A DNA stretch of 64,000 nucleotides from an uncultured Bacteroidales bacterium (GCA_963732435.1 CAVSZL010000013.1:129605-193604); one strand, 5' to 3'; numbered from the stretch's first letter, positions 41,223 through 63,967 are shown. Notes: generated by a model not told the origin, from the sequence alone. Numbers and translations: made by a program.

Positions 41223-41233
41223 AACTTGATCTA

Positions 41234-41398: not shown

Positions 41399-41457
41399 AG
41401 TGTTTCACTTTTTTACAATTATGAAAACTTACAAATATACCTTAAGCAGATCAAATC

Positions 41458-42682: not shown

Positions 42683-42744
42683 AACTACTATTGAGTCGGT
42701 AATTAACTTTCTCTTAAAAAAGGGTAACCATATCTGTAATGATT

Positions 42745-43959: not shown

Positions 43960-44001
43960 AATTGTAATTTTAAATATTAATATACATTTTACATGGACAT
44001 T

Positions 44002-45222: not shown

Positions 45223-45345
45223 TTGTTTTCATTTATCAAATATTTACTAAATAAGTTTCAGAATTATGTCTCTTTTTTTTATCAACTCATCGAAATCGTT
45301 GGCATAACTTAGCTTCATTTAGGTTTAAGTACAATCACAGGAATT

Positions 45346-46275
45346 CTATTTCCTTTTAAAAATATATAGTTTTGAATCATCTGAATTAGCTGCATAAATT
45401 GCTTTACCATCAGGAGATGCAAGATCAAGTGGTATAGAAGCCATAAATTTATTTTTTGAGGAGACATATTCCACAAATTTTCCTGATTTATCGAGAATCT
45501 TGATTCTGTTAATACCTTTCTCGGCGGTAACAAATCCTTCCGGTATAACAATGAAATGGGCAGGATTGCAACATCCGCAAAATGCTTCAGGAGATGTCCC
45601 GGGTTCTCCAAAAAAGGTCAGTGTCTTTCCGTCATTATCTCTGTGTTCTACCCTTCTGTGCCCTGTATTACCAACAAAAAAAGAGTTGTCTTCGTTGATT
45701 GCAACATCAAAATAGGGGCTGGGAACAATAAACTGACCATCATTGTGTCCAACCATTTTTTTAACCTCACCTCCCTTATCCAGAATGTAAATTGTTTTGT
45801 TTCCTGCATCTGCAAAAGCTACGTATCTGTTGTTCGAGGAAACAGAAGTTATAATGCTATTGGTTTCAAAAGGCCCCCATTCGTTTATTATCTCTCCATC
45901 GTTATCCATTAAAAATATCTGTTCTGCAGTTGATGCAAATAAAGTATCTCTGTGGTAAGAGAGAGAGGTAACAGGTGATGACATCTTTTTGTTCCATATA
46001 AGATTTAACTCTTTATCAAAGCAGGACACAAAGGAATCTCCGGCCAGATAAATATTACTCTCCTGGGAAACTGTAACTGCTTTAAGTGTTCCCTCAGTCA
46101 CTTTAAATTCCCTCGTAATCTCCCACAAATCCCCTGGTCCCTGGCTTTCTGTAACACTTATTACATCCTGAGTGGAATCTACGGTCTGAATTGAATCATA
46201 GATCATATAACCAATAAAGACAAGTATTATCAAAACTGAAAAAAGTGCTGCAATATTCTTTTTCATGTTATTCAA
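45346..46275 (-). CDS. Membrane-anchored NHL-like six-bladed beta-propeller protein
   Basis: N-terminal TM IAALFSVLIILVFIGYMIY. Repeats of the type IYLAGDSFV, IFLMDNDGE, IYILDKGGE, FFVGNTGHRRVEH and IKILDKSGK. Motif FCGCCNPAHF. Confidence 0.6.
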   Translation of the reverse strand: MNNMKKNIAALFSVLIILVFIGYMIYDSIQTVDSTQDVISVTESQGPGDLWEITREFKVTEGTLKAVTVSQESNIYLAGDSFVSCFDKELNLIWNKKMSSPVTSLSYHRDTLFASTAEQIFLMDNDGEIINEWGPFETNSIITSVSSNNRYVAFADAGNKTIYILDKGGEVKKMVGHNDGQFIVPSPYFDVAINEDNSFFVGNTGHRRVEHRDNDGKTLTFFGEPGTSPEAFCGCCNPAHFIVIPEGFVTAEKGINRIKILDKSGKFVEYVSSKNKFMASIPLDLASPDGKAIYAANSDDSKLYIFKRK

Positions 46276-46379
46276 ATTTTGATTTATGTAGTAGCCTTAC
46301 CTGTATGATTCATTAGATGTATACATTTTAATAATATATCTTCTTTCTGGGTTCATTTAGTTACAATTACCTTCTGTTT

Positions 46380-47840: not shown

Positions 47841-47890
47841 TATAAAACAATTTCTGGTTGGAGCTCTGAGTGCTCTTCTCTGTGCATTTT

Positions 47891-49144
47891 TTACTTAACT
47901 GAATATACAGCAAGGTATTCGCCATGCCTTATAAATAATCTTCCTTTATCAATTACAGGATGTGACCAGTATGGACCAGATCCTTTTGAGACCACAAATT
48001 CGCTAATAACTTCCAGCTTTTTATTACCTGGCTTTACCAGACCTACATGTCCGGATTTTTCTTCAAATATATATAACATTCCATCAGCCGAAATTACAGA
48101 TCCTTTATTATACCATTCTTCAATCCACAAAGTTTTTCCAGTAGTCCAGTCAACACAAATCCATTTTCCAAATGAAGTTGTTTCAAATGTTGAAGCATAA
48201 ATGTTATTCCCGAGAAGCACCATACCACCAACATGTGGATCTATATCGGAATTCTTCCAGACAAGCTGGGGTACAGAGTCGTCTGGTGACAATTTCAACA
48301 TAACAGATGTATGGCCATATCCGCTGGCAACAAACAAAAATCCATCACGAAAAACCGGAGTAGTTGTATGATTTTTTCTTATTCCTGAGTCAGAATTTTC
48401 AGCACCGTAATTATATTTCCATATTAATCTGCCTGAAGTTGCATCAACAGCAAAAATATAGTCGACAGACAAAGTTATAATCATTTTTTTCCCTCCATAT
48501 TCGATAAGTAAAGGATTTACATAACCGGTAGGATTATTTAAAGGTGAAGTTTCCCATACCACATCGCCATTTTTTACATTATATGCTACCATTGCAGCTT
48601 TGTTACCGCCAGGAGTACCAATAACAATATTATCAACAACCAAAGGTGATTCGGAGATTCCAAACCGTGGATGAACTCCCTCATATTTTTGATAATAATT
48701 AACTGACCACAGGGTTTTTCCTTCCTTGCTGACACTTACCATATCACCATGTCCACTTACCAGAAATATTCTTCCGAATGAGACAGTTGGTGTACACCGT
48801 GAATCAGGGTAATTACTGTTTGAGGATTTGCCATAAGGTACTTCCCATTTCTTCTTTCCATCCTGTGAAAAAGCAGTAAGAACATCCATGTCACCTTTTC
48901 TTCCTGTTATATAGATATCATCACTGGTAACTGTAACACTTGAGAAACCCGTACCAGCCTCATGTGATTCCCACAAAAGGGAAGGCCCTCCAGAAGGCCA
49001 GCTTTTTAAAAGTCCTGATTCGTTGTATATACCTGATCGGTCAGTATTGCGCCATCCATAGATTATCTGAGAAATTACAATATCCCCTGAAATAAAAAGC
49101 AATGAGATGATCAAGAAAAATATTCTGATTCCAATGGCTTTCAT
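47891..49144 (-). CDS. Secreted PQQ-like beta-propeller protein, divergent paralog
   Basis: Signal MKAIGIRIFFLIISLLFISG. YGWRNTDRSGIYNESGLLKSWPSGGPSLLW. C-terminal YWSHPVIDKGRLFIRHGEYLAVY parallels the other paralogs. ATG at 49144 preferred over 49180. Confidence 0.7.
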   Translation of the reverse strand: MKAIGIRIFFLIISLLFISGDIVISQIIYGWRNTDRSGIYNESGLLKSWPSGGPSLLWESHEAGTGFSSVTVTSDDIYITGRKGDMDVLTAFSQDGKKKWEVPYGKSSNSNYPDSRCTPTVSFGRIFLVSGHGDMVSVSKEGKTLWSVNYYQKYEGVHPRFGISESPLVVDNIVIGTPGGNKAAMVAYNVKNGDVVWETSPLNNPTGYVNPLLIEYGGKKMIITLSVDYIFAVDATSGRLIWKYNYGAENSDSGIRKNHTTTPVFRDGFLFVASGYGHTSVMLKLSPDDSVPQLVWKNSDIDPHVGGMVLLGNNIYASTFETTSFGKWICVDWTTGKTLWIEEWYNKGSVISADGMLYIFEEKSGHVGLVKPGNKKLEVISEFVVSKGSGPYWSHPVIDKGRLFIRHGEYLAVYSVK

Positions 49145-49541
49145 ATTGATATAAATTAAAAACGCAATATAAATAAACATCCATTAATTAGTTGATGAAA
49201 ATGATAATTAGCTCCTCGGGTTTAATCATTATTAAGATTTTTTAACATCCTTTATCTCCATTTATCTTTCATCTGATGTCATAATAAAATTATGCTGGCC
49301 GTTTACGGAGTCTTTTTTCCGGTTTTAAAATAATTACTGTTTCATTTATGTATTTTAATATTTTATATGATAATTAGTTATTTAATAATATTTATTCATC
49401 TATAATCCATATTTACTTAAATATATTACGTATTTTGTTTATTTTAATTTCATATTGAATTGTTATTAATAATATTTTATTATTTTTGTTGCCATATTTT
49501 TAAATGATTTCAGATTATAGTAATTTATAAAAGAATAGTCT

Positions 49542-50906
49542 ATGTGTGGTATTGTAGGTGTATTTGATCTCAAATCAGATCATATTGAGTTAAGGGCTAA
49601 GGTACTGAAGATGTCTAAAAGATTGAGACACAGAGGTCCGGACTGGTCAGGTATTTTCTATTCCGATAAAGCAATCCTGGCACACGAAAGACTATCAATT
49701 GTTGATGTGCAATCAGGAAAACAGCCATTATACAGTAAAGATAACAACCTGATTCTTGCTGTTAATGGTGAAATTTATAATCACCAGGAGATACGAAAGA
49801 GGTACGAAAACTCTTATGAATTTTTAACTCAATCAGATTGTGAAGTAATTCTCCCTTTGTATCGCGATAAGGGTCCTGCCTTCATTGAGGAGTTAAATGG
49901 AATTTTCGCCTTTGCACTTTATGACAAAGAAAATGATGATTATTTTATAGCCCGTGACCATATAGGTATTATTCCACTCTACATTGGGTGGGATTCTTCA
50001 GGTAATTTTTATGTCGCGTCTGAACTGAAAGCACTTGAAGGGGTATGCAATAAAATACAGGAATTCTTGCCAGGTCATTATCTCTCAGGTAAAGAAGGCA
50101 TTATGACAAAGTGGTATAAACGTGACTGGATGGATTATTCTGCTGTTGAAAGAAACCAGACCAGCATTGAAGATCTTAAAGATGCATTGGAAGCAGCAGT
50201 TCATCGGCAACTGATGTCAGATGTACCATATGGAGTCCTGCTTTCAGGCGGTCTTGATTCTTCTGTTGTATCAGCAATTGCCAAAAAATTTGCTCCAAAA
50301 AGGATAGAAACTCAGGACAAGAGCGAAGCCTGGTGGCCCCAATTGCATTCTTTTGCAGTTGGGTTACAGGGCTCTCCTGATCTGGCCGCTGCAAAAAAAG
50401 TTGCGGAACATATCGGAACAATTCATCATGAAATTCATTTCACGGTACAGGAAGGACTCGATGCATTACGGGATGTCATATACCATATCGAGACATATGA
50501 TGTAACAACTATCAGAGCATCAACTCCGATGTATCTTCTTGCCAGGGTCATAAAATCGATGGGAGTAAAAATGGTCCTTTCCGGTGAAGGCGCCGACGAA
50601 ATATTCGGAGGATATTTATATTTTCATAAAGCTCCTGATGCCAATGCTTTTCACGAAGAGACCGTAAGAAAGATCAGTAAATTGCATTTGTACGATTGTT
50701 TGCGTGCCAATAAATCTCTTGCAGCTTGGGGAGTAGAGGGTCGTGTTCCATTTCTTGACAAAGAATTTATGGATGTGGCTATGCGCCTCAATCCTAAAGA
50801 TAAAATGATTACCAAAGAAAAAATGGAAAAATGGGTATTGAGAAAAGCTTTTGAAGATTACCTGCCTGACAGCGTCAGCATGGCGACAAAAAGAACAATT
50901 TTCTGA
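49542..50906 (+). CDS. asnB: Asparagine synthase (glutamine-hydrolysing), segment 1 of a frame-disrupted gene
   Basis: N-terminal MCGIVG (Ntn Cys). SGGLDSS PP-loop. Homology runs to ..EDYLPDSV, then goes out of frame near 50874-50880. Confidence 0.9.
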   Translation: MCGIVGVFDLKSDHIELRAKVLKMSKRLRHRGPDWSGIFYSDKAILAHERLSIVDVQSGKQPLYSKDNNLILAVNGEIYNHQEIRKRYENSYEFLTQSDCEVILPLYRDKGPAFIEELNGIFAFALYDKENDDYFIARDHIGIIPLYIGWDSSGNFYVASELKALEGVCNKIQEFLPGHYLSGKEGIMTKWYKRDWMDYSAVERNQTSIEDLKDALEAAVHRQLMSDVPYGVLLSGGLDSSVVSAIAKKFAPKRIETQDKSEAWWPQLHSFAVGLQGSPDLAAAKKVAEHIGTIHHEIHFTVQEGLDALRDVIYHIETYDVTTIRASTPMYLLARVIKSMGVKMVLSGEGADEIFGGYLYFHKAPDANAFHEETVRKISKLHLYDCLRANKSLAAWGVEGRVPFLDKEFMDVAMRLNPKDKMITKEKMEKWVLRKAFEDYLPDSVSMATKRTIF

Positions 50907-51210
50907 TGGAGTGGGATATAACTGGATTGATACCCTAAAGGCGCTGGTGGCCAAAGAGGTTACGGATGAGCAATTGAAAAATGCAAAATACCGGTTTCCG
51001 ATTAATCCTCCCCCTACTAAGGAAGAGTATTATTACAGATCTATATTCACTGAGCATTTCCCGTCTGATTCAGCTGCATTATGTGTTCCATCGGTTCCTT
51101 CCGTTGCCTGCAGTACACCGGAAGCTCTTGCATGGGATGCCTCATTCAGAAATATGAATGATCCATCCGGCCGGGCAGTAAAAAGCGTTCATAACGATTC
51201 TTATAAATAA
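50851..51210 (+). CDS. asnB: Asparagine synthase, segment 2 (C-terminal)
   Basis: AWRQKEQFSDGVGYNWIDTLK is the conserved AsnB C-terminal motif, directly continuing ..LPDSV from the other frame. Confidence 0.9.
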   Translation: MKITCLTASAWRQKEQFSDGVGYNWIDTLKALVAKEVTDEQLKNAKYRFPINPPPTKEEYYYRSIFTEHFPSDSAALCVPSVPSVACSTPEALAWDASFRNMNDPSGRAVKSVHNDSYK

Positions 51211-51411: not shown

Positions 51412-52842
51412 ATGAAAAAAGAACTTCCATTATTGTTGTGTACATCTCTGGCGATGTCCTCGTGTGGTACATCAAATAAAGAGAATCAATTACCAAATAT
51501 TGTTTTTATTCTTGCCGACGACCTTGGCTATGGAGATCTGAGCTGTTATGGGCAGAAATTGTTTTCAACACCCAACATTGACAGACTCGCATCAGAAGGT
51601 ATGCTCTTTACCCAGCACTATACAGGTTGCACGGTTTCTGCTCCTTCACGTTCAAGCCTTATGACCGGTCTTCATACCGGCCACACTCCAATACGAGGTA
51701 ACAAAGAATGGCAACCAGAGGGACAATGGCCCCTCCCTGCTGCTTCATTAACAGTTGCAGAGATTCTGAAAACAAAAGGTTATACAACAGGAGCTTTCGG
51801 TAAATGGGGACTTGGATACATTGATACTGAAGGAGATCCAAATAACCAGGGGTTCGATCAGTTTTTCGGGTACAACTGTCAGAGGCTTGCCCACAATTAC
51901 TATCCGTATTACCTGTGGAATAACAGAGAAAAGATACTTATACCTGAAAATGAGGGGAAAAAATCAGGTATTTACGCCCCTGACCTGATTCAAAAGGCAG
52001 CAATTGAATTTATTGAGAAGAATCAAACAAAACCGTTTTTTCTTTTCTACCCGAATATCATTCCTCATGCTGAATTATTTGCAAAAGAAGAATATCTTAA
52101 CAGGTTCAGGGGAAAATTTGACCCTGAAAAATCATTTACAGGTGTGGATGATGGTCCGACCTTCAGACAGGGTCCATATGGTTCACAACCTGAAGCACAT
52201 GCCGCATTTGCAGCTATGGTTACCCAACTTGACGATTATGTTGGTGAACTTCTTGCAAAACTGTCAGAACTGGGTCTTGAAAAGAATACTATTGTAATAT
52301 TTTCATCAGATAATGGTCCGCATCTTGAAGCTGGTGCTGATCCTGATTATTTTAACAGCAATGGAGACCTGAGAGGGTATAAACGCGATATGTATGAAGG
52401 TGGAATCAGGGCTCCAATGCTCGTCAGATGGCCAGCTAAAGTAAAAGCCGGAGTTAAAAATGACCATATTTCAGCATTTTGGGATATACTTCCAACTTTT
52501 GCAGAGATAACCGGAGCTGAAATACCTTCAGATATTGATGGGATCTCATTTCTTCCGGCTCTCACTGGCAAAGAACAGAAAAAGCATGATTATCTTTACT
52601 GGGAGTTCCATGAGCAGGGAGGTAAAATCGGCATCAGGATGGAAAACTGGAAAGCAGTTAAACTTAATGTTGATAAGGATTCACTGACTACGACAGAATT
52701 ATATAACCTGTCAACCGATGTTGGAGAATCAAACAATGTCGCTGCTGAAAATCCTGATATAATTAAAAGAGTTGAGGAGATTATAAAGGAGGCTCATATC
52801 CCATCTGATGTATTTCCTTTTTTAAGTGAAACCAATAAATAA
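51412..52842 (+). CDS. S1 sulfatase, Ser-type, lipoprotein
   Basis: NIVFILADDLGYGDLSCYG. SAPSRSSLMTG signature with Ser at the formylglycine position. Signal ..AMSSCG. Confidence 0.9.
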   Translation: MKKELPLLLCTSLAMSSCGTSNKENQLPNIVFILADDLGYGDLSCYGQKLFSTPNIDRLASEGMLFTQHYTGCTVSAPSRSSLMTGLHTGHTPIRGNKEWQPEGQWPLPAASLTVAEILKTKGYTTGAFGKWGLGYIDTEGDPNNQGFDQFFGYNCQRLAHNYYPYYLWNNREKILIPENEGKKSGIYAPDLIQKAAIEFIEKNQTKPFFLFYPNIIPHAELFAKEEYLNRFRGKFDPEKSFTGVDDGPTFRQGPYGSQPEAHAAFAAMVTQLDDYVGELLAKLSELGLEKNTIVIFSSDNGPHLEAGADPDYFNSNGDLRGYKRDMYEGGIRAPMLVRWPAKVKAGVKNDHISAFWDILPTFAEITGAEIPSDIDGISFLPALTGKEQKKHDYLYWEFHEQGGKIGIRMENWKAVKLNVDKDSLTTTELYNLSTDVGESNNVAAENPDIIKRVEEIIKEAHIPSDVFPFLSETNK

Positions 52843-52897
52843 TATTAGAATATTTCTTATTTTCCTGTTAAAAATTGGTCAAAACTTAAAAGACTTT

Positions 52898-54442
52898 ATG
52901 GATCCAATATCAAGAAAAAGAATCGCCCCTGCTGCAATGTGTTTATTGACAGCAGCTTCCTATATAGCTCCGGGATGCAAGCCGGCAGAAAAACCTAATA
53001 TTATTATTATATATGCTGATGATCTTGGTTATGGTGATCTGAGTTGTTATGGAGCAACAACAATATCAACACCCAATATTGACAGGTTTGCAGACAAAGG
53101 ATTGCGTTTTACAAATGCACATTGTACTTCAGCAACGAGTACTCCATCGAGATATTCATTACTTACAGGTGAATATGCATGGCGTATTAAGGGCACAGGA
53201 ATTGCAAGGGGTGATGCTTCAGCAATAATTAAGCCTGGCCGGCATACCATCGCAACTATTCTTAAGCAGACAGGCTACTCGACAGCAGTTGTTGGAAAGT
53301 GGCACCTCGGACTTGGCGCTGATGATGGAGTTGATTGGAATAAAGATATTGTGCATGGTCCGATGGATATAGGATTTGATTACAATTTTATAATTCCCGC
53401 TACAGGAGACAGAGTACCATGCGTATATGTAGAAAACAGGAGAGTCGTTGGTCTTGAATCTGCAGATCCGATAACTGTCTCATATGGTGAAAAAGTCGGT
53501 CAATGGCCAACCGGAAAAGAGAATCCAGATATGCTGAAGATGAAACCAAGTCATGGTCATGATATGACAATAGTGAATGGGGTGAGTAGAATAGGTTACA
53601 TGACAGGAGGTAAATCAGCTCTTTGGATTGATGAAGATATGGCTGACAGAATAACGGGAAAAGCAATTGAATTTATTGAAAAAAACAAGGATAGGCCTTT
53701 CTTCCTCTATTTTGCAACTCATGATATTCATGTGCCGCGACTGCCTCATGAACGATTCACCGGTAAAAGTGGCATGGGACCAAGAGGAGATGCAATACTC
53801 GAATTTGACTGGTCAGTGGGAGAAATTGTAAATAAAATTGACCAGCTTGGCCTCTCCGGGAATACTATAATAATTGTAACAAGTGACAATGGACCTGTTA
53901 TTGATGATGGATACAAAGATATGGCCGTTGAACTTCTCGGTAATCATAAGCCTGCCGGACCATTGCGTGGAGGTAAATACAGCGCATTCGACGGAGGAAC
54001 ACGTGTTCCATTTATAATAAAATGGGAAAGCAAAATTAAATCCGGTATCTCAGATGCACTCTTTAGCCAGGTTGACTTGATGGCTTCTTTAGCAGATATA
54101 GCTGGCAGCATTCTTCCCGAAGATGCAGGACCTGACAGTTTTAACCAGTCTGATGCACTTATTGGAAAAACTCTCGATGGAAGGGGGTGGCTTATTGAAC
54201 AATCACTAAATAACAGACTGTCTCTGATAATGGGCGACTTCAAATATATTGAATCAGGTCCTGGAGTCAGATTAATGACAAATACAAAGACTGAAACAGG
54301 TAATGATACTGTACCGCAGCTTTATAATCTAAGATATGATATAGGTGAAAAGAATAATATTGCAGGAGAGAACCAGGATATTGTTAAACAGCTTTCAAAT
54401 TTACTCGGTGAAATAAAGGAAAATAACAAAATAAATAAATAA
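52898..54442 (+). CDS. S1 sulfatase, Ser-type, lipoprotein
   Basis: NIIIIYADDLGYGDLSCYG. STPSRYSLLTG. ATG at 52898 preferred over the GTG at 52826, which overlaps the previous gene. Confidence 0.9.
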   Translation: MDPISRKRIAPAAMCLLTAASYIAPGCKPAEKPNIIIIYADDLGYGDLSCYGATTISTPNIDRFADKGLRFTNAHCTSATSTPSRYSLLTGEYAWRIKGTGIARGDASAIIKPGRHTIATILKQTGYSTAVVGKWHLGLGADDGVDWNKDIVHGPMDIGFDYNFIIPATGDRVPCVYVENRRVVGLESADPITVSYGEKVGQWPTGKENPDMLKMKPSHGHDMTIVNGVSRIGYMTGGKSALWIDEDMADRITGKAIEFIEKNKDRPFFLYFATHDIHVPRLPHERFTGKSGMGPRGDAILEFDWSVGEIVNKIDQLGLSGNTIIIVTSDNGPVIDDGYKDMAVELLGNHKPAGPLRGGKYSAFDGGTRVPFIIKWESKIKSGISDALFSQVDLMASLADIAGSILPEDAGPDSFNQSDALIGKTLDGRGWLIEQSLNNRLSLIMGDFKYIESGPGVRLMTNTKTETGNDTVPQLYNLRYDIGEKNNIAGENQDIVKQLSNLLGEIKENNKINK

Positions 54443-54443
54443 G

Positions 54444-55943
54444 ATGGCTCTAAAAAACACTTCTATTGGCATCAGCGCAATAGTATCAGTATCAGTTGCT
54501 TCCTTATTTAGTACAGGATGTAATAAAGAAACAAAACAAAATGTTATATTCATCCTTCTGGATGACTTTGGTTACACCGATCTTGGCTGTTATGGCAGCA
54601 AATTCTACGAAACTCCGAATATCGACAGACTTGCAGATCAGGGTGTAAGATTTACAGATGCTTATGCAGCCTGCCCGGTATCATCACCAACAAGGGCAGC
54701 AATCATGACAGGAAGATATCCTGTTAATACCGGTATTACAGACTGGATACCCGGCAGACAGGCTGCCAAAAATGGATTACCTGAAAACAAATATCTTTCA
54801 TTAGATTTTAAGCAACAGCTCGATCTGTCAGAAACGACTATTGCAGAAGTATTAAAAACAAATGGTTATGCCACTATGATCTCAGGGAAATGGCATCTGG
54901 GAGGCACTCCTGAATATTGGCCTGAAAACCAGGGATTTGATATCAACAAAGGCGGATATAGTGCCGGAGCTCCAAGAATAACTGATGTATCAAATGGTTT
55001 TTTTTCTCCATACGGGAATCCAAGGCTTGAGGACGGACCGGCAGGTGAATATCTGACTGACCGGCAGACAGATGAAGCAATAAGATTCATAGAGAATACG
55101 GGTAAAAAACCCTTCTTCATATATCTCTCCTACTATGCAGTACATACCCCAATTCAGGGAAAAGAAGATCTTGTTAAAAGATTTACACAGAAAGCAGACT
55201 CGATGAATTTAAACACTCAAACATCATTTACTACAGAGAAAGAGTGGATTCCAAAATCATCATCAGATAACTTTAAAGAACGAACTATTCAAAGTAATCC
55301 TGTTTATGCTGCCATGATTTACAGTGTTGATGAGAATATAGGGAAACTAATAAAAAAACTGGAGGAGTTAAAAATTGATGAAAATACAATAATAATTTTC
55401 ACATCGGATAATGGCGGCCTTTCAACATCGGAAGGGTCTCCGACCTGTAACTTTCCATTGAGAGCTGGTAAAGGGTGGCTTTATGAAGGGGGTATTCGTG
55501 TGCCACTGATAATAAAAGCTCCTGGAGTACAAAAGGATACCAGGGAAGTAAGAACACCTGTCTCATCTATTGATTATTTTCCTACCATAATTGAATTGAC
55601 CGGATCTGTCCAATCTGAAAATCCAGTTGATGGGATCAGTATAGTTCCTTTATTAAAAAACGATAAAATTATTGACCGTCCTCTGTTCTGGCATTATCCG
55701 CATTATTCAAATCAGGGAATTGAACCAGGTAGTGCAATAAGGCTGGGAAATTATAAACTAATAGATAATTTTGAAAAAGAAAGACAGGAATTATACGACC
55801 TGGAAAAGGATATTTCAGAAGAATATGATATCTCTGCCGATAACCCTGCAAAAACTAAAGAACTTTATAACCAGTTGGCAGAATGGCGTAAAAATGCAAA
55901 TGCAAAAATGATGGAACCCAATCCTAACTTTAATCTTAAATGA
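54444..55943 (+). CDS. S1 sulfatase, Ser-type, lipoprotein
   Basis: NVIFILLDDFGYTDLGCYG. SSPTRAAIMTG. Start is 1 nt after the previous stop. Confidence 0.9.
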   Translation: MALKNTSIGISAIVSVSVASLFSTGCNKETKQNVIFILLDDFGYTDLGCYGSKFYETPNIDRLADQGVRFTDAYAACPVSSPTRAAIMTGRYPVNTGITDWIPGRQAAKNGLPENKYLSLDFKQQLDLSETTIAEVLKTNGYATMISGKWHLGGTPEYWPENQGFDINKGGYSAGAPRITDVSNGFFSPYGNPRLEDGPAGEYLTDRQTDEAIRFIENTGKKPFFIYLSYYAVHTPIQGKEDLVKRFTQKADSMNLNTQTSFTTEKEWIPKSSSDNFKERTIQSNPVYAAMIYSVDENIGKLIKKLEELKIDENTIIIFTSDNGGLSTSEGSPTCNFPLRAGKGWLYEGGIRVPLIIKAPGVQKDTREVRTPVSSIDYFPTIIELTGSVQSENPVDGISIVPLLKNDKIIDRPLFWHYPHYSNQGIEPGSAIRLGNYKLIDNFEKERQELYDLEKDISEEYDISADNPAKTKELYNQLAEWRKNANAKMMEPNPNFNLK

Positions 55944-55944
55944 A

Positions 55945-57417
55945 ATGATAAAATTTAAAACAGCTGTCAGCATCGGAGCAGCCTCCATTGCATCCTTCCA
56001 GTGCACAACACAAAATCAGACTGCTATTAAGACTGCAACTCCCAACATCATTCTTATCCTGATGGATGATCTGGGTTATGGGGATATTGGAAGAAATGGT
56101 GCGAACCAGTATGAGACACCAAATCTTAACCGGATGGCAAACCAGGGCATGCAATTCACCTGGTATTATTGCCCCCAGGCTGTGAGCAGTGCATCGAGAG
56201 CCGGGTTAATGACCGGGTGCTATCCCAACAGAGTAGGTATCGCCGGTGCGCTATTCCCATATTCTACAATTGGAATTAATTCCGAAGAGACAACAATTGC
56301 AGAAATGCTTAAGACAAAGGGGTACCACACAGGGATAATAGGAAAGTGGCACCTTGGATATCAGACAGAGTTTCTTCCTCTTCAGCATGGTTTTGATGAG
56401 TATTATGGCATCCCATATTCAAACGATATGTGGCCAGTTGATTTTGATGGCGTTCCTATCCATCTGAAAGATACCACAAGCAATAAGATGAAACACCCGG
56501 TATTGCCTCTTATTGAGGGTAATGATAAAGTGGGAGAAATACCGGACTTAGCCGGACAGGACAAACTTACAACCGATTACACCGAAAGGGCAGTTAAATT
56601 CATTGATAATAATAAAGACACCCCATTTTTCTTGTATCTGCCTCATACAATGGTACATATTCCCCTCGGTGTATCAGAAAAATTCAGAGGAAAGAGTAAG
56701 CAGGGAATGTATGGTGATGTTATGATGGAAGTGGATTGGTCAATTGGTGAGATAATGAAGGCTGTTGAAAGAAATGGTCTGGATAAGAATACTCTGATCA
56801 TTTTCACAAGCGATAATGGACCATGGCTAAACTTTGGCAACCACGCAGGAACAACCGGCGGATTGCGTGAGGGAAAAGGTACCAGTTGGGAAGGTGGACA
56901 GAGAGTCCCTTGCATTATGAGATGGCCTGGAAAAATACCTGAAGGTGAAATATGCAACAGACTTGCTTCTTCGATTGATATCCTTCCAACACTCGCAGAA
57001 ATAACAGGGGCTTCACTCCCGGAAAAGAAAATTGATGGTATAAGCATTTTACCGCTTCTCCTGGGTGATAAAACAGCCTCTCCAAGGCAAAATTTCTATT
57101 ACTATTACCGTCAGAACAGTCTCGAAGGAGTTCAGAAAGAGTATTGGAAACTTGTGCTTCCTCATACAAGTCAATCTTATGAAGGAGTAGAACCCGGAAA
57201 TAACGGGTGGCCCGGAAAAATTGTCACTTATACCGTTAATGAGCTGGAACTGTATGATCTTCGAAGGGACCCGGGAGAAAGATACAATGTCGCTGACTTG
57301 TATCCTGATATTGTTAAAGAACTTCAGGATCTGGTAAACGAGGCCCGTGAAGATCTGGGAGATGATATAACAAATGTTCCAGGTGCTAACCGGAGAAAAC
57401 CTGGTTCAGTAAACTAG
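55945..57417 (+). CDS. S1 sulfatase, Ser-type (SxAxR variant)
   Basis: NIILILMDDLGYGDIG. SSASRAGLMTG. Start is 1 nt after the previous stop. Confidence 0.9.
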   Translation: MIKFKTAVSIGAASIASFQCTTQNQTAIKTATPNIILILMDDLGYGDIGRNGANQYETPNLNRMANQGMQFTWYYCPQAVSSASRAGLMTGCYPNRVGIAGALFPYSTIGINSEETTIAEMLKTKGYHTGIIGKWHLGYQTEFLPLQHGFDEYYGIPYSNDMWPVDFDGVPIHLKDTTSNKMKHPVLPLIEGNDKVGEIPDLAGQDKLTTDYTERAVKFIDNNKDTPFFLYLPHTMVHIPLGVSEKFRGKSKQGMYGDVMMEVDWSIGEIMKAVERNGLDKNTLIIFTSDNGPWLNFGNHAGTTGGLREGKGTSWEGGQRVPCIMRWPGKIPEGEICNRLASSIDILPTLAEITGASLPEKKIDGISILPLLLGDKTASPRQNFYYYYRQNSLEGVQKEYWKLVLPHTSQSYEGVEPGNNGWPGKIVTYTVNELELYDLRRDPGERYNVADLYPDIVKELQDLVNEAREDLGDDITNVPGANRRKPGSVN

Positions 57418-57444
57418 ATATGCAATAAAGTAATATTAACTTTT

Positions 57445-59118
57445 ATGAAGAAACTTAAACCTGCACTGGGAATCGGTATTGCGGCTTTGGTAACAATTCA
57501 GTCAACCGGTCAGCAACCCGTAAAGAAACCAAATATTATCTGGATCTCTACTGAAGATATGAGTCCCCATCTTGGTTGTTACGGCGATGCGGTTGCCAAA
57601 ACCCCGAATATCGACAAACTGGCATCAGAGGGAATTCGTTTTACAAATGTGTTCACAACTGCTGCAATAAGTGCTCCTGTAAGATCTGGCATTATTACAG
57701 GGATGTACCAGACCACAATAGGGTGCATGCATATGAGAACCACCTCTTACAGACGCAGTGCGGAAAATCCAGTTGAATTTACTGCCGTCCCTCCGCACTA
57801 TGTTAAAGCATTCACAGAGTATATGAGGACTGCAGGTTACTACTGTACCAATAATAATAAAACTGATTACCAGTTTGCCAAAGATCCTGTTCCTGCAAGT
57901 ATATGGGATGAATGCAGTAGAAATGCTCATTATAAAAACCGGCCGGATAAAAACCAGCCATTCTTTGCAGTATTTAACTGGACAGGCACACACGAAAGCC
58001 AGAACTGGGATCTCAGTAAAATTAAAACAGATCCGAAATTAGTTAAAGTACCTCCATATTACCCCGATAATGAATTGATAAGAAGGAATATAGCCAAAAT
58101 GTATGATAATATCGCGAGGCTTGATTCAGTAGTTGGTGCGTTAATATCAGAACTTAAAAAAGAGGGTGAACTTGATAATACAATTATATTCTTCTGGGGC
58201 GACCATGGAGATGGATTGCCAAGAAGTAAAAGATGGTTATATGATTCCGGACTTAATATTCCACTAATTATTAAATATCCCGGTTCAGCAAAAGCATCGG
58301 TCGATAACAGGCTGATCAGTTCAATCGATTTTGGGCCGACTGTTCTTTCCCTTGCAGGTGTTCCTGTTCCGGCACATATGCAGGGTATTCCGTTTCTGGG
58401 CGACCAGCAGGGAGAACCGAGAGATGCAGTCTATGCTGCCCGTGACAGGGTGGATGAATCTTACGATATGATCCGGTCAGTACGGACGAAAGACTACCTC
58501 TACATACATAATTATTATCCAAACGAACCATTCTCAATCTGGGTACCATATCTGAGTAAGATGCCAATTTACATGGAGATGTTGCGTCTTGATGCTGAAG
58601 GTAAACTCACTGGTAATCAAAAAAGCTGGATGTCCTATTCACGGCCTCCTGAAGAATTATATGATGTCAAAGCTGACCCGTATCAATTGAAAAATCTTGT
58701 TAATGATCCTGCACTAAAAACTGTTTTGGCAGATCTTAGAAAACGTCACAAGGTATGGACACTGGAAACAGGTGACCTTGGGCATATGAACGAACCTGAA
58801 ATGATTGAGCAGATGTGGCCGGGCGGAAAACAGCCGGTGACTGATATTCCTTATTTTATAGTTAATAGCCCAGAAGATCGGGCATCAAAGAACTACAGGG
58901 CAGGAGGTACCTTCTCCGCTCCAATGACCCTAAGCTTCTATTGCCCTACACATGGAGCATCTGTTGTCTATACTTTTGATGATGATAAGACTCCCCGCTG
59001 GTTACTCTACAATGGTCCTATTCTTCTTAAACCCGGAAAGTACAATATTCGTGTCAAAGCAATACGATATGGATATAAGGAGAGTGAAGTACTGAATGGT
59101 ACTTTTGATATAGTCTGA
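57445..59118 (+). CDS. S1 sulfatase, Ser-type, with C-terminal Fn3/CHB_HEX_C-like module
   Basis: NIIWISTEDMSPHLGCYG. SAPVRSGIITG. C-terminal VVYTFDDDKTP..YNGPILL..GKYNIRVKA. Confidence 0.9.
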   Translation: MKKLKPALGIGIAALVTIQSTGQQPVKKPNIIWISTEDMSPHLGCYGDAVAKTPNIDKLASEGIRFTNVFTTAAISAPVRSGIITGMYQTTIGCMHMRTTSYRRSAENPVEFTAVPPHYVKAFTEYMRTAGYYCTNNNKTDYQFAKDPVPASIWDECSRNAHYKNRPDKNQPFFAVFNWTGTHESQNWDLSKIKTDPKLVKVPPYYPDNELIRRNIAKMYDNIARLDSVVGALISELKKEGELDNTIIFFWGDHGDGLPRSKRWLYDSGLNIPLIIKYPGSAKASVDNRLISSIDFGPTVLSLAGVPVPAHMQGIPFLGDQQGEPRDAVYAARDRVDESYDMIRSVRTKDYLYIHNYYPNEPFSIWVPYLSKMPIYMEMLRLDAEGKLTGNQKSWMSYSRPPEELYDVKADPYQLKNLVNDPALKTVLADLRKRHKVWTLETGDLGHMNEPEMIEQMWPGGKQPVTDIPYFIVNSPEDRASKNYRAGGTFSAPMTLSFYCPTHGASVVYTFDDDKTPRWLLYNGPILLKPGKYNIRVKAIRYGYKESEVLNGTFDIV

Positions 59119-59199
59119 CGGATAATATTTCTTACTTTAAACTAAATGATTTTTTTTTCGTTGCCATCTGACAGGATTATATCATTGAAGAAAAAAACA

Positions 59200-61506
59200 A
59201 TGTCTGCTTCAAGATTCCTTTCCCTTGAGCAGGCAAAAATAATAACCAGAGTATACCAGCAAAACACGACTCTTCCTGTTATAAAAAAGCGATCACTGGC
59301 TCTTTCAAAGGCACTTCATGAAATGCCAATAGCAATTGATCCTGAGGAGCTTATTGTTGGTAACAGAACACCAGACATAAGAGCAGGTGTTGTATTCCCT
59401 GAAGCAGGAATATCCTGGTTAAAAGAAGAAATTGAACTATTGCCAACACGACCACAGGATTCTTTCAATGTGCGAAGGGATGATATTTTATGTTTCAGGG
59501 AGCTCATTGAACCATACTGGCAAGGGAAATCAATGGAAGAAAACATTTATGGCAATTACGGAAAAGAAATTAAAGATATCGGGAAAGTTGTCAAGATTAA
59601 TCAGAAGGATCATGCTCAAGGTCATATTTGCCCGCAGGTAAAAGATTGGCTGAAATACGGACCTGCAGGTCTTGTAGAAATTTCAAAGAATAAACTTCAG
59701 AATGCGTCAGGTGACCAGAGGGATTTCTATGAAAGTGTCATAGATACACTTAATGCTTCCTCTACATTCATCTCAAGATATGCTGAAAAGGCATATGAAA
59801 TCTCTGGATATCAGCAGGAAGAATCGTTAAGAAATAACTTATTGGATATTGCGAATGTTTGCAGAAATATTTCTTCTAATCCTCCTTCGACATTCAGGGA
59901 AGCTCTTCAGTCTGTTTGGTTTTTGTTTGTTATCCTTCACATGGAGTCAAATGCTTCATCCTTTTCTCCGGGGCGGATGGATCAGTATTTATATCCTTTT
60001 TATCTTTCTGACCTCAAATCAGGTTTAATTGATATTAGATCAGCACTGGAACTTATTGATGCAATATTCATAAAATTCAACCAGATAGTCTACCTGCGTA
60101 ATACACACAGTGCAGAGTTCTTTGCCGGATTTCCGATTGGATTCAATGTTACATTAGGAGGACAAAAAGAAAATGGCGATGATGCTGCGAATGAACTAAC
60201 TTATCTTTTCTTAAATGCCCAGGATCATGTCAGATTACCCCAGCCAAACCTGACAGCCAGGATTCACAAAGGTTCATCAGATGAATTTCTTAATGAATGC
60301 AGCCGGATTATTGGTCTCGGCACAGGAATGCCTCAGATAGTTAACGATGAGAGTATAATACCTTCATTAAATAAAGCAGGCATCAGTACTTCTGATAGTA
60401 TAGATTATGCACTTGTAGGATGTGTTGAATTAACCACACAGGGTAACTTTCTTGGTTGGAGTGATGCAGCTATGTTTAATCTGGTCAAAACCCTGGAATT
60501 GACACTGAATAATGGCATCTGCATGTTAAGTGATAAACAAATAGGATTAAATACAGGTTTTTTATATGATCATCCTGATTACAATTCACTTGAAGCAGCA
60601 TTCAGGAGACAGATCGATTTCTTTTTAGGAAAAATGATAACAGCATGCGAGGTTGTGGAAAAATACCATCAAACACATCTTCCATCTCCATTTTTATCAT
60701 CAGTTGTTGATACTTGTCTTATAAATGGCAAAGATGTTACTCAGGGTGGAGCAAAATATAACTTTTCAGGTATCCAGGCAATTCAGGTAGCTAATATTGC
60801 TGATAGCCTGGCTGTTCTCAAAAAATTGGTGTTTGAAGAAAAGACCATAGAGAAGAAAAAAATTCATCAGGCTCTAATCAATAATTTTAAGGATAATGAA
60901 CCTCTTAGACAATTATGTATTAACCATGTACCAAAATATGGAAATGACATTGCATGGGTTGACGAAATAGGATCTGAATGTATAAAATACTTTGCAGATA
61001 AGCTTGGCAAATACACAAATTTCAGAGGTGGACATTATCATATGGGACTCTATACAGTATCTGCTCATTTACCGATGGGTAAAAATGTTGGCGCTACACC
61101 CGATGGCAGATTTGCTGGATCTCCGCTTGCAGATGGCGGCTTGTCACCAATGTATGGTCGCGACAAGGAAGGACCTACTGCAGTGTTGAATTCAGTAAGC
61201 AGGATACCATCATTGCTTGCAAGTAACGGTACATTGCTTAATATGAAGTTTTTACCATCACTCTTTGAAAATGAAAGTGACAAAACTAAGTTTACTTCCC
61301 TCTTGAAGAGCTTTATTTCACTACCGATACATCATATTCAATTTAATGTACTATCTGACTCGGATTTAAAAAGGGCTAAAGCTCACCCCGAATCATACAG
61401 GGGCCTCACAATAAGAGTTGCTGGTTATACAGCTTTCTTTACTGAATTAAGTTCAGATCTGCAGGATGAAATTATTGAAAGGACAACACATGGGCAATCA
61501 ATATGA
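59200..61506 (+). CDS. Glycyl radical enzyme, PFL2/glycerol-dehydratase-like (1,2-eliminase class)
   Basis: Gly-radical loop RVAGYTAFFTEL..QDEIIERTTH. Cys loop YALVGCVELT (C-V-E as in CutC/GDH/HypD-type enzymes). N-terminus FLSLEQAKIITRVYQQ...DPEELIVGNRT. ATG at 59200 preferred over 59146. Confidence 0.85.
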   Translation: MSASRFLSLEQAKIITRVYQQNTTLPVIKKRSLALSKALHEMPIAIDPEELIVGNRTPDIRAGVVFPEAGISWLKEEIELLPTRPQDSFNVRRDDILCFRELIEPYWQGKSMEENIYGNYGKEIKDIGKVVKINQKDHAQGHICPQVKDWLKYGPAGLVEISKNKLQNASGDQRDFYESVIDTLNASSTFISRYAEKAYEISGYQQEESLRNNLLDIANVCRNISSNPPSTFREALQSVWFLFVILHMESNASSFSPGRMDQYLYPFYLSDLKSGLIDIRSALELIDAIFIKFNQIVYLRNTHSAEFFAGFPIGFNVTLGGQKENGDDAANELTYLFLNAQDHVRLPQPNLTARIHKGSSDEFLNECSRIIGLGTGMPQIVNDESIIPSLNKAGISTSDSIDYALVGCVELTTQGNFLGWSDAAMFNLVKTLELTLNNGICMLSDKQIGLNTGFLYDHPDYNSLEAAFRRQIDFFLGKMITACEVVEKYHQTHLPSPFLSSVVDTCLINGKDVTQGGAKYNFSGIQAIQVANIADSLAVLKKLVFEEKTIEKKKIHQALINNFKDNEPLRQLCINHVPKYGNDIAWVDEIGSECIKYFADKLGKYTNFRGGHYHMGLYTVSAHLPMGKNVGATPDGRFAGSPLADGGLSPMYGRDKEGPTAVLNSVSRIPSLLASNGTLLNMKFLPSLFENESDKTKFTSLLKSFISLPIHHIQFNVLSDSDLKRAKAHPESYRGLTIRVAGYTAFFTELSSDLQDEIIERTTHGQSI

Positions 61507-62335
61507 TATTGAAGGAGTTATCTTTAAGATAAAGCGTTTCTCGCTGCATGATGGTCCCGGTATTCGCACATCCGTTTTTCTTAAGGGTTGTCCTCTCAAC
61601 TGCATCTGGTGTCATAGTCCTGAAGGAATAAGTAATGAAATAACCATCTGGTATAATATTAATACTTGCATAAAATGTGGTCTGTGTGTTGATGCATGCC
61701 CCGAAAATGCTTTGTCTCTTATTGCAGAGGAATTGTCATACATTTCAATCAACCGTGAATACTGCAAGTTATCCGGACAATGTGTCGATATATGCCCTTC
61801 AAATGCCATGCAGTTCACCGGATATAAAATTAGTGTTCCGGAGATGTTAGTGGAAATTGAAAAGGATATTACTTATTATAAGGCTTCCGGAGGTGGGATT
61901 ACTCTTAGCGGTGGTGAGCCTCTGTACCAGCCTGAATTTTCAGCGGCATTACTCAAGGAATGCATGAAAAGAGATATCCACACAGCAATCGAAACCTCTT
62001 TGTTTTGTGAAAAAGATGTAGTAGAACATATTTCTGACTATGTCGATTTATTCATTGTAGACTTAAAAATTTTTAATAGCGATCAGCATAATATTTATAC
62101 CGGTAAGCACAATATGATAATTATAGAAAATTTTAAGTACATTGCATCAATCGGGAAGAACATAATTGTAAGAATACCTCTTGTTAATGATATTTCAGAT
62201 CATGAAGAAAACATAACAGCAATATCTGATTTTGTTAATGATACAAGGAAGGATATTACAATTGAAAAGATTAAGTTCAACCCGCTCGCCGGAAATAACT
62301 ACAGGAAATTAGACATGCCTTTTTTCCTTAAATGA
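61490..62335 (+). CDS. Glycyl-radical enzyme activating enzyme (radical SAM, with two extra ferredoxin-type clusters)
   Basis: HDGPGIRTSVFLKGCPLNCIWCHSPE (CX3CX2C). CIKCGLCVDACP and CKLSGQCVDICP inserts. LSGGEPL. Overlaps the GRE stop by 17 nt if the start is Met at 61490. Confidence 0.85.
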   Translation: MGNQYDIEGVIFKIKRFSLHDGPGIRTSVFLKGCPLNCIWCHSPEGISNEITIWYNINTCIKCGLCVDACPENALSLIAEELSYISINREYCKLSGQCVDICPSNAMQFTGYKISVPEMLVEIEKDITYYKASGGGITLSGGEPLYQPEFSAALLKECMKRDIHTAIETSLFCEKDVVEHISDYVDLFIVDLKIFNSDQHNIYTGKHNMIIIENFKYIASIGKNIIVRIPLVNDISDHEENITAISDFVNDTRKDITIEKIKFNPLAGNNYRKLDMPFFLK

Positions 62336-62404: not shown

Positions 62405-63967
62405 ATGAAAACTAACCTAAGCATCCTTGCATCATTAGGATTTATTGCGGCAGCTCCGGCTGTTTATTCCCAGAATACTCAACAGCGCCCGAATATTATT
62501 TACATAATGAGTGATGACCACGCCTTTCAGGCCTTAAGCGCTTATGGTGGTCCACTGAAAGATCTTGCCCCGACACCCAATATAGACAGGATTGCCAGGG
62601 ATGGAATGCGGTTTGACCGCTGTCTGGTAACTAACTCAATATCGGGGCCATGCAGAGCTGTTATACTTACAGGCAAATACAGCCACCTTAATGGATTTAT
62701 AAAAAATGACGGACAGGCACCATTTGATGGATCCCAGCAGACTTTCCCAAAGTTGCTGCAGAAATCAGGATATAATACTGCAATGATCGGCAAGTGGCAT
62801 CTTGGATCTAATCCAACTGGTTTTAATCACTGGGAAATATTACCCGGGCAGGGAAATTACTATAATCCCGATTTTATTACTAAAGATGGAACACATACTG
62901 ATACCGGTTATGTAACTGAACTCATAACCGACAAATCCATTAAGTGGATTTCTGAAGTAAAAGCTTCTGGAAAACCATTTATGCTCATGATGCATCATAA
63001 AGCCCCGCACAGGGAATGGCAGCCTGGCCCGAACGAATTATCATTATATAAAGATGTCACATTTCCTGAACCATCTAGCTTGTTTGATGACTATTCAAAC
63101 AGGGGAACTGCTGAGAAAACCCAGGATATGACAATTTCTGAAACTATGAGGCTTGAAGAGGATCTGAAGTTGTTCAGAAACAGGTCAAACGTGAAAACAA
63201 CCGGCATTAACCGTATGAATCCGGAACAGGCCAAAGCATGGGATAATGTTTATGAACCAATAATCAAATACTTTTACGAATCTGACCTCAAAGGAAAAGA
63301 GCTTATTAGTTTTAAATATCAGCGATATCTTCAGGATTACCTTGCATGCATAGCAGCTGTTGATAAAAGCGTGGGGGAGGTCCTTGATTACATTAAGGAA
63401 AACGGACTTGATAAGAACACAATTGTTGTTTATGCATCAGATCAGGGGTTTTATCTCGGAGAACATGGATGGTTTGATAAAAGATGGATGTTTGAAGAAT
63501 CATATCGCACCCCGTTGCTGATACAGTGGCCCGGAACTATTGAACCCGGCAGTGTAAATAAAGATATGGTTTCCAATTTAGATTTTGCTGAAACATTTCT
63601 GGAAATAGCCGGAGTAAAAGTACCTTCAGATATGCAGGGAAGGAGTATGGTTCCGGTTTTGAAAGGTAAAACTCCCGGCAACTGGAGAAAGGAACATTAT
63701 TACCATTATTACGAGTACCCCGGACCGCATATGGTGAAACGCCATTATGGAATAAGTACTGACAGGTATAAACTTATCCATTATTATTATGATATTGATG
63801 AATGGGCCCTGTACGATCTGAAAACTGATCCTCAGGAAATGAAGAATGTTTACAACGATCCGGCATATAATTCTGTAAAGACAGATCTTCATAAACGGCT
63901 TAATAACCTGATGGTTAAATATAAAGACAGTGAAAAACTGGCAAAATCACTCCTTCCAAAGAGCTAA
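62405..63967 (+). CDS. S1 sulfatase, Ser-type
   Basis: [30 protein letters not shown]. Signal peptide ending AVYSQ. Confidence 0.9.

Follow-up and report, generated by a model that had tools for sequence, protein, structure and literature searches.

A glycyl radical enzyme of an uncharacterised clade sister to PflD, encoded within a conserved sulfatase operon of an uncultured Bacteroidales bacterium

Glycyl radical enzymes (GREs) of the 1,2-eliminase/isomerase group are defined by a CxE motif, in which a glutamate lies two residues past the catalytic cysteine (PMC13450708). Two of them, the 'GRE isomerases' PflD and YbiW, act on phosphorylated anhydrosugars; PflD opens the ether ring of 1,5-anhydromannitol-6-phosphate (AM6P) and YbiW that of 1,5-anhydroglucitol-6-phosphate to give 1-deoxyfructose-6-phosphate, which FSA aldolases then split (PMC13450708; PMC12441222). 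Here we describe a GRE and its activase from a 64,000-nucleotide (nt) stretch of DNA of an uncultured Bacteroidales bacterium (GCA_963732435.1 CAVSZL010000013.1:129605-193604), hereafter the window, in which the two genes stand amongst six sulfatase genes. Judged by its relatives and its GC content (38%), the source appears to be an anaerobe of Bacteroidales or Marinilabiliales-like type. The enzyme is a member of a tight, widespread and uncharacterised clade that is sister to PflD, and its linkage to the sulfatases is conserved across several lineages. It may well be a radical lyase of phosphorylated sugars with a specificity of its own.

The GRE gene (59146..61506, + strand) was assigned from Pfam, NCBIfam, PDB sequence searches, motifs and phylogeny; its product of 786 amino acids (aa) matches the PFL-like domain PF02901 (677 bits) and the Gly_radical domain PF01228 (98 bits). 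The start most likely lies at 59146 rather than 59200, because the N-terminal 'RIxxLK' helix aligns with the N-terminus of PflD and relatives are 786-791 aa long. The glycyl loop RVAGYTAFF (aa 757-765, nt 61414-61440) contains Gly760, the Cys loop VGCVE, of which GCVE occupies aa 425-428 (nt 60418-60429), contains Cys426 and Glu428, and the acid is His160. All four residues are kept in all relatives examined, and the C426-V-E428 motif is kept in all 157 clade members aligned, which places the enzyme in the CxE-defined 1,2-eliminase/isomerase group. The adjoining gene (61466..62335, + strand) encodes a GRE-activating radical-SAM enzyme of 289 aa that scores 312 bits against TIGR02494 (cut-off 174), matches Radical_SAM and Fer4 domains, and carries the CX3CX2C motif as CPLNCIWC (aa 42-49) together with the ferredoxin-like motifs CIKCGLCVDAC and CKLSGQCVDIC. 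The possibility that this activase is a sulfatase maturase in disguise was rejected, as it matches GRE-activase models and not SPASM models. The initial annotation of this DNA had listed the two GRE loops, the CPLNCIWC motif and two ferredoxin inserts, all of which were located, and had reported two overlapping genes; the overlap is 41 nt, or 17 nt if the activase begins at Met9. None of the essential catalytic residues, whose loss it had named as telling against its proposal, is missing: Cys426, Glu428, Gly760 and His160 are all present. The two genes are predicted to encode a catalytically complete pair, and the GRE is almost certainly active, with ketyl-radical beta-elimination chemistry of the CxE type.

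The one NCBIfam model whose cut-off the GRE exceeds is that of the broad subfamily, TIGR01774 (797 bits, cut-off 678), and it falls below every equivalog cut-off: 761 against 1109 bits for the PflD-type model NF007437/PRK09983, 543 against 1100 for HypD (NF043068), 540 against 1050 for CutC (TIGR04394), and 536 and 527 against 1000 each for HpsG and HpfG. Identity as the choline trimethylamine-lyase CutC or the trans-4-hydroxy-L-proline dehydratase HypD is not supported by these scores, nor is that of a sulfonate lyase by the HpsG and HpfG models. The top PDB sequence match is E. coli PflD (8yjo, 636 bits; substrate-bound 8id0, 588 bits), and further matches are glycerol dehydratase (GDH, 564 bits), 9rco (539), propanediol dehydratase (529), CutC (511) and YbiW (479); identity amounts to 43% with PflD, 41% with 8id0, 37% with YbiW and 38-39% with GDH, propanediol dehydratase and 9rco. 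For the phylogeny, 179 GREs from 161 related loci were aligned with E. coli K-12 PflD and YbiW and with four PDB sequences hand-transcribed from alignment output, and neighbour-joining (NJ) trees were calculated on p-distance-derived distances with 100 bootstraps. The window GRE groups within 157 sequences that were recovered as a monophyletic clade in 100/100 replicates. This clade lies outside the PflD clade, its sister, which is itself monophyletic (100/100); the split that separates these two clades from the YbiW clade and the diol dehydratases is likewise recovered in 100/100. The clade is a large one, and its relatives in databases number in the thousands and come from gut Clostridia, Lachnospiraceae, spirochaetes, Chloroflexota, Kiritimatiellota and sediment Bacteroidales. 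A review of GREs from June 2026 includes no characterised enzyme corresponding to it (PMC13450708), and our search of the literature for a third sugar-type GRE found no description. Tight clustering with propanediol or glycerol dehydratases, which the initial annotation had envisaged as an alternative outcome, is not what the trees give, since the GRE groups with PflD (NJ 100/100).

Conserved segments were numbered by GDH and chosen around residues taken to line the GDH pocket, of which only Cys433, Glu435 and His164 are confirmed by a review (PMC13450708). The GRE keeps the acid/base positions, with His160 corresponding to GDH His164, Glu428 to Glu435 and the Asp of a GWxD segment to Asp447. 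In common with PflD, and unlike GDH, propanediol dehydratase and 9rco, it has NQxDxxQGH, ESNASS, a Gly at the position of GDH Tyr339, YTVSAH and LADGGxSP, where the dehydratases instead have ES(N/S)GHS, Tyr or Phe at Tyr339, YP(S/V)S(I/A)N and no extra Gly in LADG-. The segments are practically invariant throughout the clade (window, Clostridium beijerinckii, Anaerostipes hadrus, Treponema and Pontiella), and because this holds from Bacteroidales to Clostridium, Anaerostipes and spirochaetes, the sequences argue for a single substrate for the whole clade. In three loci (L021, L022 and L110) a GRE of the window clade is encoded beside a PflD-like GRE, and in L021 beside a YbiW-like GRE as well; the presence of these paralogues side by side suggests a clade specificity distinct from those of PflD and YbiW. 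The L021 locus comes from a metagenome-assembled genome of Eubacteriales and encodes, beside its three GRE paralogues and two activases, a ROK kinase, a sugar ABC transporter, DeoR regulators and a shikimate-dehydrogenase-like protein.

The GRE and its activase lie in an operon of eight tightly packed genes on the + strand (51.4-64.0 kb), comprising five sulfatases (S1-S5), the GRE, the activase and a sixth sulfatase (S6), with successive gaps from S1 to S6 of -17, 1, 1, 27, 27, -41 and 69 nt. We infer that these genes are co-transcribed; no convincing terminator-like site was found on the + strand inside the S1-S6 operon, a scan for sigma-70 promoters and terminators performed no better than shuffles, the Bacteroidetes -7 motif TAnnTTTG occurs four times in 15 kb, no more than the number estimated by chance, and an Rfam scan of window positions 49-64 kb returned zero matches. 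The arrangement of five sulfatases upstream and one 69 nt downstream on one strand, as initially annotated, was borne out, with PF00884 found in all of them (51412-59118 and 62405-63967), whereas the reported gap of 81 nt to the upstream sulfatase had to be corrected to 27 nt because the GRE most likely starts at 59146 and not at 59200. Also accurate were the statements that the rha genes are 32 kb distant, that the window contains no bacterial microcompartment (BMC) shell gene and that the island lacks an importer: RhaT, RhaA and RhaB are encoded at 23.2-27.5 kb, beyond a block of genes on the opposite strand, and within the operon there is no transporter or importer gene, no glycoside hydrolase and no SusC/SusD pair. 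The phosphotransferase system (PTS), kinase and FSA-type aldolase that make up the PflD/YbiW 'anhydroglycolysis' operon set are absent from the GRE operon of the 64-kb window. A BMC shell gene was found neither in the window nor in 170 related loci with the PduA sequence as BMC-H probe; the probe was checked and matches PF00936.

All six operon sulfatases combine the (C/S)x(P/A)xR...TG motif with PF00884 and an export signal, the features by which S1 sulfatases were recognised. Together with a seventh sulfatase (19527-21572) they have Ser-type formylglycine motifs and lipoprotein or signal-peptide N-termini, as the export signals reported earlier had implied for the six. Being all of the Ser type, the window sulfatases depend on a radical-SAM maturase, though no anaerobic sulfatase maturase (anSME; TIGR03942/PRK13745) is encoded in the 64-kb window. 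The nearest solved relatives of the six operon sulfatases, all on the + strand, belong to six different subfamilies. S1 (51412..52842; PF00884 223 bits; SAPSRSSLMTG) is a lipoprotein with the N-terminus ...AMSSCG and is nearest to PDB 7an1 (419 bits), which we take to be an S1_20 galactose-3-O-sulfatase. S2 (52826..54442; 180 bits; STPSRYSLLTG), a lipoprotein whose start is probably the ATG at 52898, is nearest to 7oze and 6s20 (644-647 bits), presumably S1_15 Gal/GalNAc-6-O-sulfatases, and S3 (54444..55943; 215 bits; SSPTRAAIMTG), also a lipoprotein, to the kappa-carrageenan sulfatase 9fo1 of S1_16 (464 bits). S4 (55945..57417; 194 bits; SSASRAGLMTG) is more distant and arylsulfatase A-like (human ARSA, 275 bits). 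S6 (62405..63967), which combines PF00884 and SGSH_C with an 11-residue Ser-type motif and a signal peptide, matches 9s03 (584 bits), the N-acetylglucosamine-6-sulfatase 5g2v (582 bits) and the mucin-desulfating sulfatase 7p24 (563 bits), and we assume it to be S1_11-like (GlcNAc-6-O-sulfatase family). S5 (57445..59118; 137 bits; SAPVRSGIITG) has a signal peptide and a C-terminal CHB_HEX_C-like domain and is S1_8-like, with 9bes and 9bb9 (S1_8A) at 282 bits; S1_8A-C are galactose-2-O-sulfatases of the lambda-carrageenan cascade (bioRxiv 10.1101/2025.01.09.632246). From these matches the operon is predicted to be an exo-desulfation toolkit.

The linkage of sulfatases and GRE recurs in collinear form, S1..S5-GRE-(activase)-S6, on at least seven other Bacteroidales contigs (L081, L082, L092, L094, L011, L166 and L170) and is not the peculiarity of a single genome that the initial annotation had reckoned with. 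L166 reads asnB-S1-S2-S3-S4-S5-GRE-S6, followed by anSME on the opposite strand and then Gfo/Idh/MocA; L011 reads S1-S2-S4-S5-GRE-S6 and L170 S3-S4-S5-GRE-activase-S6-anSME, and L081, L082, L092 and L094 hold shorter pieces in the same order. The eight linked loci represent about six lineages, between which the GREs are 64-74% identical (89-92% within two pairs). In the seven other loci, the S5 orthologues directly before the GRE are 76-94% identical to the S5 of the window (66% for the L092 fragment), and the S6 orthologues after the GRE or activase 75-94% identical to its S6. A 450-aa gene after S6 in L166 (14337-15689) and L170 (8711-10063) is anSME (PRK13745 543 bits, cut-off 484), and a homologous gene of 449-451 aa is found downstream of S6 in L082, L092 and L094; in these five related loci the maturase is encoded on the other strand, a short way past S6. 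The Gfo/Idh/MocA oxidoreductase beside the maturase in L166 has a weak match to glycoside 3-dehydrogenase.

Further out the loci differ. The window lineage continues with a TonB receptor, an MFS transporter and HemN (observed on L081, a contig 92% identical) and others with anSME and Gfo/Idh, and amongst the eight linked loci asnB is found upstream only in the window and L166; the block has therefore been kept while its surroundings changed. Because it is conserved and operon-like, the sulfatase-GRE association is probably maintained by selection. The gene for asparagine synthase B, asnB (49542..51210, + strand; NF006949 797 bits over 451/554 profile positions), is the conserved left neighbour of the sulfatase-GRE block: an intact 555-aa copy stands directly before either the GRE or the array of sulfatases in L004, L006, L015, L086-L088, L090, L165 and L166. 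In the window it is split by a 1-nt frameshift near 50875, outside any homopolymer run, into frames of 454 and 119 aa (555 aa in relatives), and is either a pseudogene or the product of an assembly error.

The linked GREs all fall into one subclade (96% bootstrap, with internal bootstraps of 9-39), which also includes asnB-GRE-activase-efflux loci and ROK-GRE loci, and most related Bacteroidales-type loci examined (~40/48) have no sulfatase beside the GRE. When the 8 linked were compared with 27 unlinked GREs, 0 of 784 alignment columns reached a difference of 0.8, the top columns being I/V and L/M changes; functional divergence of the sulfatase-linked GREs was rejected, as no column discriminates between them. 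The initial annotation knew of no characterised GRE that is co-operonic with S1 sulfatases, and none emerged from the literature searched or from the 2026 review; searches on GREs with sulfatases, GREs with anhydro-sugars, and Kiritimatiellota or fucoidan with PFL yielded no description of the association.

What the enzyme might act on is indicated by its relatives elsewhere. Neighbours were counted within five genes in 116 loci from other phyla, often on short contigs, so that the counts are lower bounds: kinase-like genes are found in at least 51 of these loci (13 with ROK and 46 with a ~600-aa ASKHA-like protein), DeoR regulators in 48, sugar ABC transporters in 39, AraC regulators in 27, FSA/TalC-type aldolases in 22 and a fructose-type PTS in 16. 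This pattern mirrors E. coli frwCB-pflDC-frwD and fsaA-ybiYW. Loci of Bacteroidota and Kiritimatiellota agree with it. Sunxiuqinia sp. A32 has the order MFS-AraC-ROK-GRE-activase-GH3; six further loci have, before the GRE, a 312-aa gene that clusters with its ROK kinase, and in five a ROK-type kinase lies 3' of the GRE. In L167-L169 genes for PFK-like, HAD, LarA-like, Gfo/Idh/MocA, 6PGD-like, MFS, LacI and UxaE-like proteins are followed by the GRE and activase, and in Pontiella sulfatireligans a GRE-activase-ROK group is set amongst GH3, GH92, pectate-lyase-like, PQQ-like propeller, Gfo/Idh/MocA, xylose-isomerase-like and sulfatase genes. Such contexts fit a cytoplasmic phosphosugar substrate and fit poorly with a diol dehydratase, and we infer a phosphosugar substrate because kinase, PTS and FSA aldolase genes neighbour members of the clade elsewhere. 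The ~600-aa ASKHA-like protein, which bears an ATPase motif and matches no family of Pfam or NCBIfam, is encoded after the activase in 46 loci, all outside Bacteroidota (e.g. L028:13257-15083), and is, by its motif and position, a candidate novel kinase for the GRE substrate.

We therefore put at slightly better than even the reading in which the GRE is a phosphosugar radical C-O lyase of a third specificity, beside PflD and YbiW, within a conserved sulfatase operon, and in the broad sense, as a phosphosugar C-O lyase or dehydratase, we regard the assignment as likely. The substrate would be a cytoplasmic phosphorylated sugar derivative resembling an anhydro-hexitol-6-phosphate. Following the standard GRE mechanism, the activase would cleave S-adenosylmethionine at its [4Fe-4S] cluster to generate a radical on Gly760, which would move to Cys426; the Cys426 thiyl would take a hydrogen from the hydroxyl-bearing substrate carbon, Glu428 would deprotonate the hydroxyl, and the neighbouring C-O bond would break with His160 acting as the acid. 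The product, having regained a hydrogen from Cys426, would be a deoxy-keto compound, to be split by an FSA-type aldolase encoded elsewhere. As to the linkage, we prefer the view that a sugar-handling step in the cytoplasm is co-expressed with a toolkit for desulfation under anoxia, with no change in chemistry, because the GRE sequence hints at no sulfated substrate and the sulfatases act outside the cytoplasm. The initial annotation had proposed either a C-S or C-O lyase of a small sulfonated, sulfated or deoxy metabolite or a new specificity; of this a C-O lyase of new specificity survives in broad terms, and the sulfonated or sulfated metabolite is not supported, since the evidence points to a phosphorylated sugar and no residue discriminates the linked enzymes.

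Several observations weigh against this reading. The identity to PflD (43%) is little above that to GDH or propanediol dehydratase (39%), and the GRE and PflD differ in the segments GWSD/GLHD, KDHAQ/TDKGQ, PIGFN/PTGYT and TTQGN/SIPGR; because several conserved segments differ in this way, the substrate is probably not AM6P itself. Beside the GRE of the window, genes for a kinase, an aldolase or an importer are lacking. The activase is missing from three of the eight linked loci: in L011 (9944-13856) and L094 (1787-5669) the GRE and S6 overlap by 14-17 nt without one, and L166 (10001-14158) also lacks it. As the Gly and Cys loops are kept all the same, the GREs of L011 and L094 must use an activase encoded elsewhere. 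A net dehydration of a phosphosugar is possible, and a phosphosugar lyase leaves the conserved sulfatase flank on both sides of the gene unexplained.

This flank could have no functional meaning at all, the GRE and activase being a self-contained module at a hot spot beside asnB where a sulfatase array was gained or lost. The ~40 of 48 related Bacteroidales-type loci with other neighbours (asnB-GRE-activase-efflux, ROK-GRE or LacI-UxaE-GRE) speak for such a purely positional linkage, as do the upstream synteny of the window (propeller genes and asnB), which is common to sulfatase-free loci, and the GRE residues, which are the same in the linked and unlinked groups. Yet the block stays collinear even though its outer surroundings vary and GRE identity drops to 64-74%, and sulfatases stand on both sides of the GRE with operon-like spacing and overlaps; we consider a meaningless linkage possible and on the whole doubtful.

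The lyase reading could also err in its chemistry, if the GRE were a phosphosugar or polyol-phosphate dehydratase that carries out a net 1,2-elimination of water instead of an isomerising ether ring opening. The sugar and kinase contexts would suit such an enzyme equally well, the pattern of His160, Glu428 and Asp is common with GDH (H164, E435 and D447), and GWxD is closer to the GWHD of GDH than to the GLHD of PflD. Set against this are the sister relationship to PflD (100/100), the lack of a G-H-S motif, the Gly where the diol dehydratases have their Tyr339 position, and the FSA aldolase in 22 loci, which matches the pathway logic of PflD and YbiW, and we think a dehydratase in this strict sense unlikely.

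Two further proposals would tie the enzyme to the sulfatases more closely. As the cytoplasmic arm of a sulfated-glycan pathway the GRE would process a sugar, such as a derivative of an anhydro- or deoxy-hexose, that is freed specifically by the action of the six exo-sulfatases, or would eliminate a sulfate ester by radical beta-elimination; this would explain why selection has kept the GRE between sulfatases and next to a maturase, and we give it a small chance. Smaller still is the chance that it is a radical lyase of a sulfated or sulfonated sugar metabolite that serves as cytoplasmic partner of the sulfatases, cleaving C-S bonds like IslA and HpsG or eliminating sulfate from an ester. The six-sulfatase operon, with a maturase in relatives, has been conserved in collinear order in about six lineages, loci without the activase have a GRE-S6 overlap of 14-17 nt, the Pontiella sulfatireligans GRE lies in clusters rich in glycoside hydrolases and sulfatases, and sulfate would in our estimation be a chemically good leaving group for ketyl-radical elimination. 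However, the HpsG and HpfG scores (536 and 527 bits) are below the cut-offs of 1000, most clade members have no sulfatase nearby and lie beside genes for kinases, a PTS and FSA aldolase, linked and unlinked copies do not differ in the conserved segments and are separated by 0 of 784 columns, and the sulfatases are exported with no importer in the operon.

The first option of the initial annotation, a B12-independent dehydratase of 1,2-propanediol or glycerol at the end of an anaerobic pathway for rhamnose or fucose, can draw on the rhamnose and GH78 genes in the same window, the CxE motif and acid His, and the GDH match of 564 bits, and is nevertheless highly improbable, given pocket-homologous segments unlike those of GDH, propanediol dehydratase and 9rco (ESNASS, Gly at Tyr339, YTVSAH), grouping with PflD and apart from these enzymes, no BMC shell gene in the window or 170 loci, rha genes 32 kb away beyond an opposite-strand block, and clade neighbours that are sugar transporters, kinases and aldolases rather than aldehyde dehydrogenase/phosphotransacylase sets.

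Other parts of the window have features of their own. On the - strand (32876-49180) it encodes six PQQ_2/BamB-like beta-propeller proteins, one of which has a weak match to the lambda-carrageenase propeller PF25292, interspersed with proteins of NuoE/NuoF/NuoG-like and 4Fe-4S type (34121-41237). These propeller genes recur upstream of asnB-GRE in L004, L005, L006, L015 and L165, and a 900-aa propeller protein is encoded directly before the GRE in Pontiella L013 and L101. The NuoF-like FMN-binding domain Complex1_51K (35202-37623, - strand) is divided over two overlapping open reading frames (36235-37623 and 35202-36329) in different frames, an apparent second frameshift in the window. At 19527-21572 a Ser-type sulfatase is fused to a Rha78A N-terminal domain, with the GH78 catalytic part following at 21607-23079 in another frame; the whole (19527-23079) resembles the sulfatase/GH78 fusion known from an ulvan locus, here in split form, with PDB 6hr5 amongst the sulfatase matches. 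RhaT, RhaA and an FGGY kinase follow the GH78 part, in a region that extends to 27515. In the glycoside hydrolase block, the products of 9671-11932 (753 aa) and 6324-8489 (721 aa) have no Pfam match above gathering and weak N-terminal matches to GH20b/GH67N-like domains.

Once a substrate is assigned to the clade, the radical 'anhydroglycolysis' chemistry found recently would gain a third branch. The operon with its six exo-sulfatases, accompanied in relatives by a maturase, is moreover a testable lead as to how strict anaerobes link the removal of sulfate from marine or host glycans with the use of sugars in the cytoplasm. Should the linkage prove purely positional, what is left is a new representative of a known enzyme class; should the GRE be the cytoplasmic arm of sulfated-glycan degradation, the catabolism of sulfated polysaccharides would have its first radical enzyme step.

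Compared with known systems, the sulfatase part of the locus resembles the Bacteroides anSME/ChuR sulfatase loci (S1_11, S1_15, S1_16 and S1_20) in its Ser-type exported exo-sulfatases and, in relatives, in the anSME after S6, and the nearest solved relatives of the operon sulfatases are mucin and glycosaminoglycan sulfatases of B. thetaiotaomicron. We know of no such Bacteroides locus that includes a GRE, nor did the literature searched contain one. The sulfonate enzymes IslA/IseG, HpsG and HpfG are likewise CxE-type GREs tied to sulfur metabolism, but their PDB chains (7kq3, 5ymr and 6lon) reach only 354-391 bits. On a tentative mapping, the first Arg and the Gln of their Arg-Gln-Arg sulfonate anchor would correspond to His and His in the GRE. 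Glycerol dehydratase (1R8W) and 1,2-propanediol dehydratase (5I2A) have the same fold, the same Cys, Glu, His and Asp positions and 39% identity; unlike the GRE, which has A-S-S, they have G-H-S (GDH His281 and Ser282), and the split supported at 100/100 separates them from it, with no diol-pathway neighbours found for the window GRE. YbiW (b0823, 8ID7) is of the same class, with a CxE motif and a sugar-phosphate pathway whose FSA aldolase gene adjoins, and differs in its low identity (37%, 479 bits), its separate clade, its GCIETAVGGKW Cys loop and its ESNGHS segment. PflD (E. coli b3951; 8ID0/8YJO) comes closest. The window GRE lies outside the PflD clade (761 against 1109 bits) and is surrounded only by sulfatases, with no PTS, kinase or aldolase; it nevertheless aligns with PflD over its full length (43% identity, 636 bits) and has the CxE Cys loop, the pflD and pflC genes of E. 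coli overlap as the window GRE and activase genes do, and clade members in other phyla are accompanied by a fructose-type PTS, an FSA aldolase and DeoR, as PflD is in E. coli.

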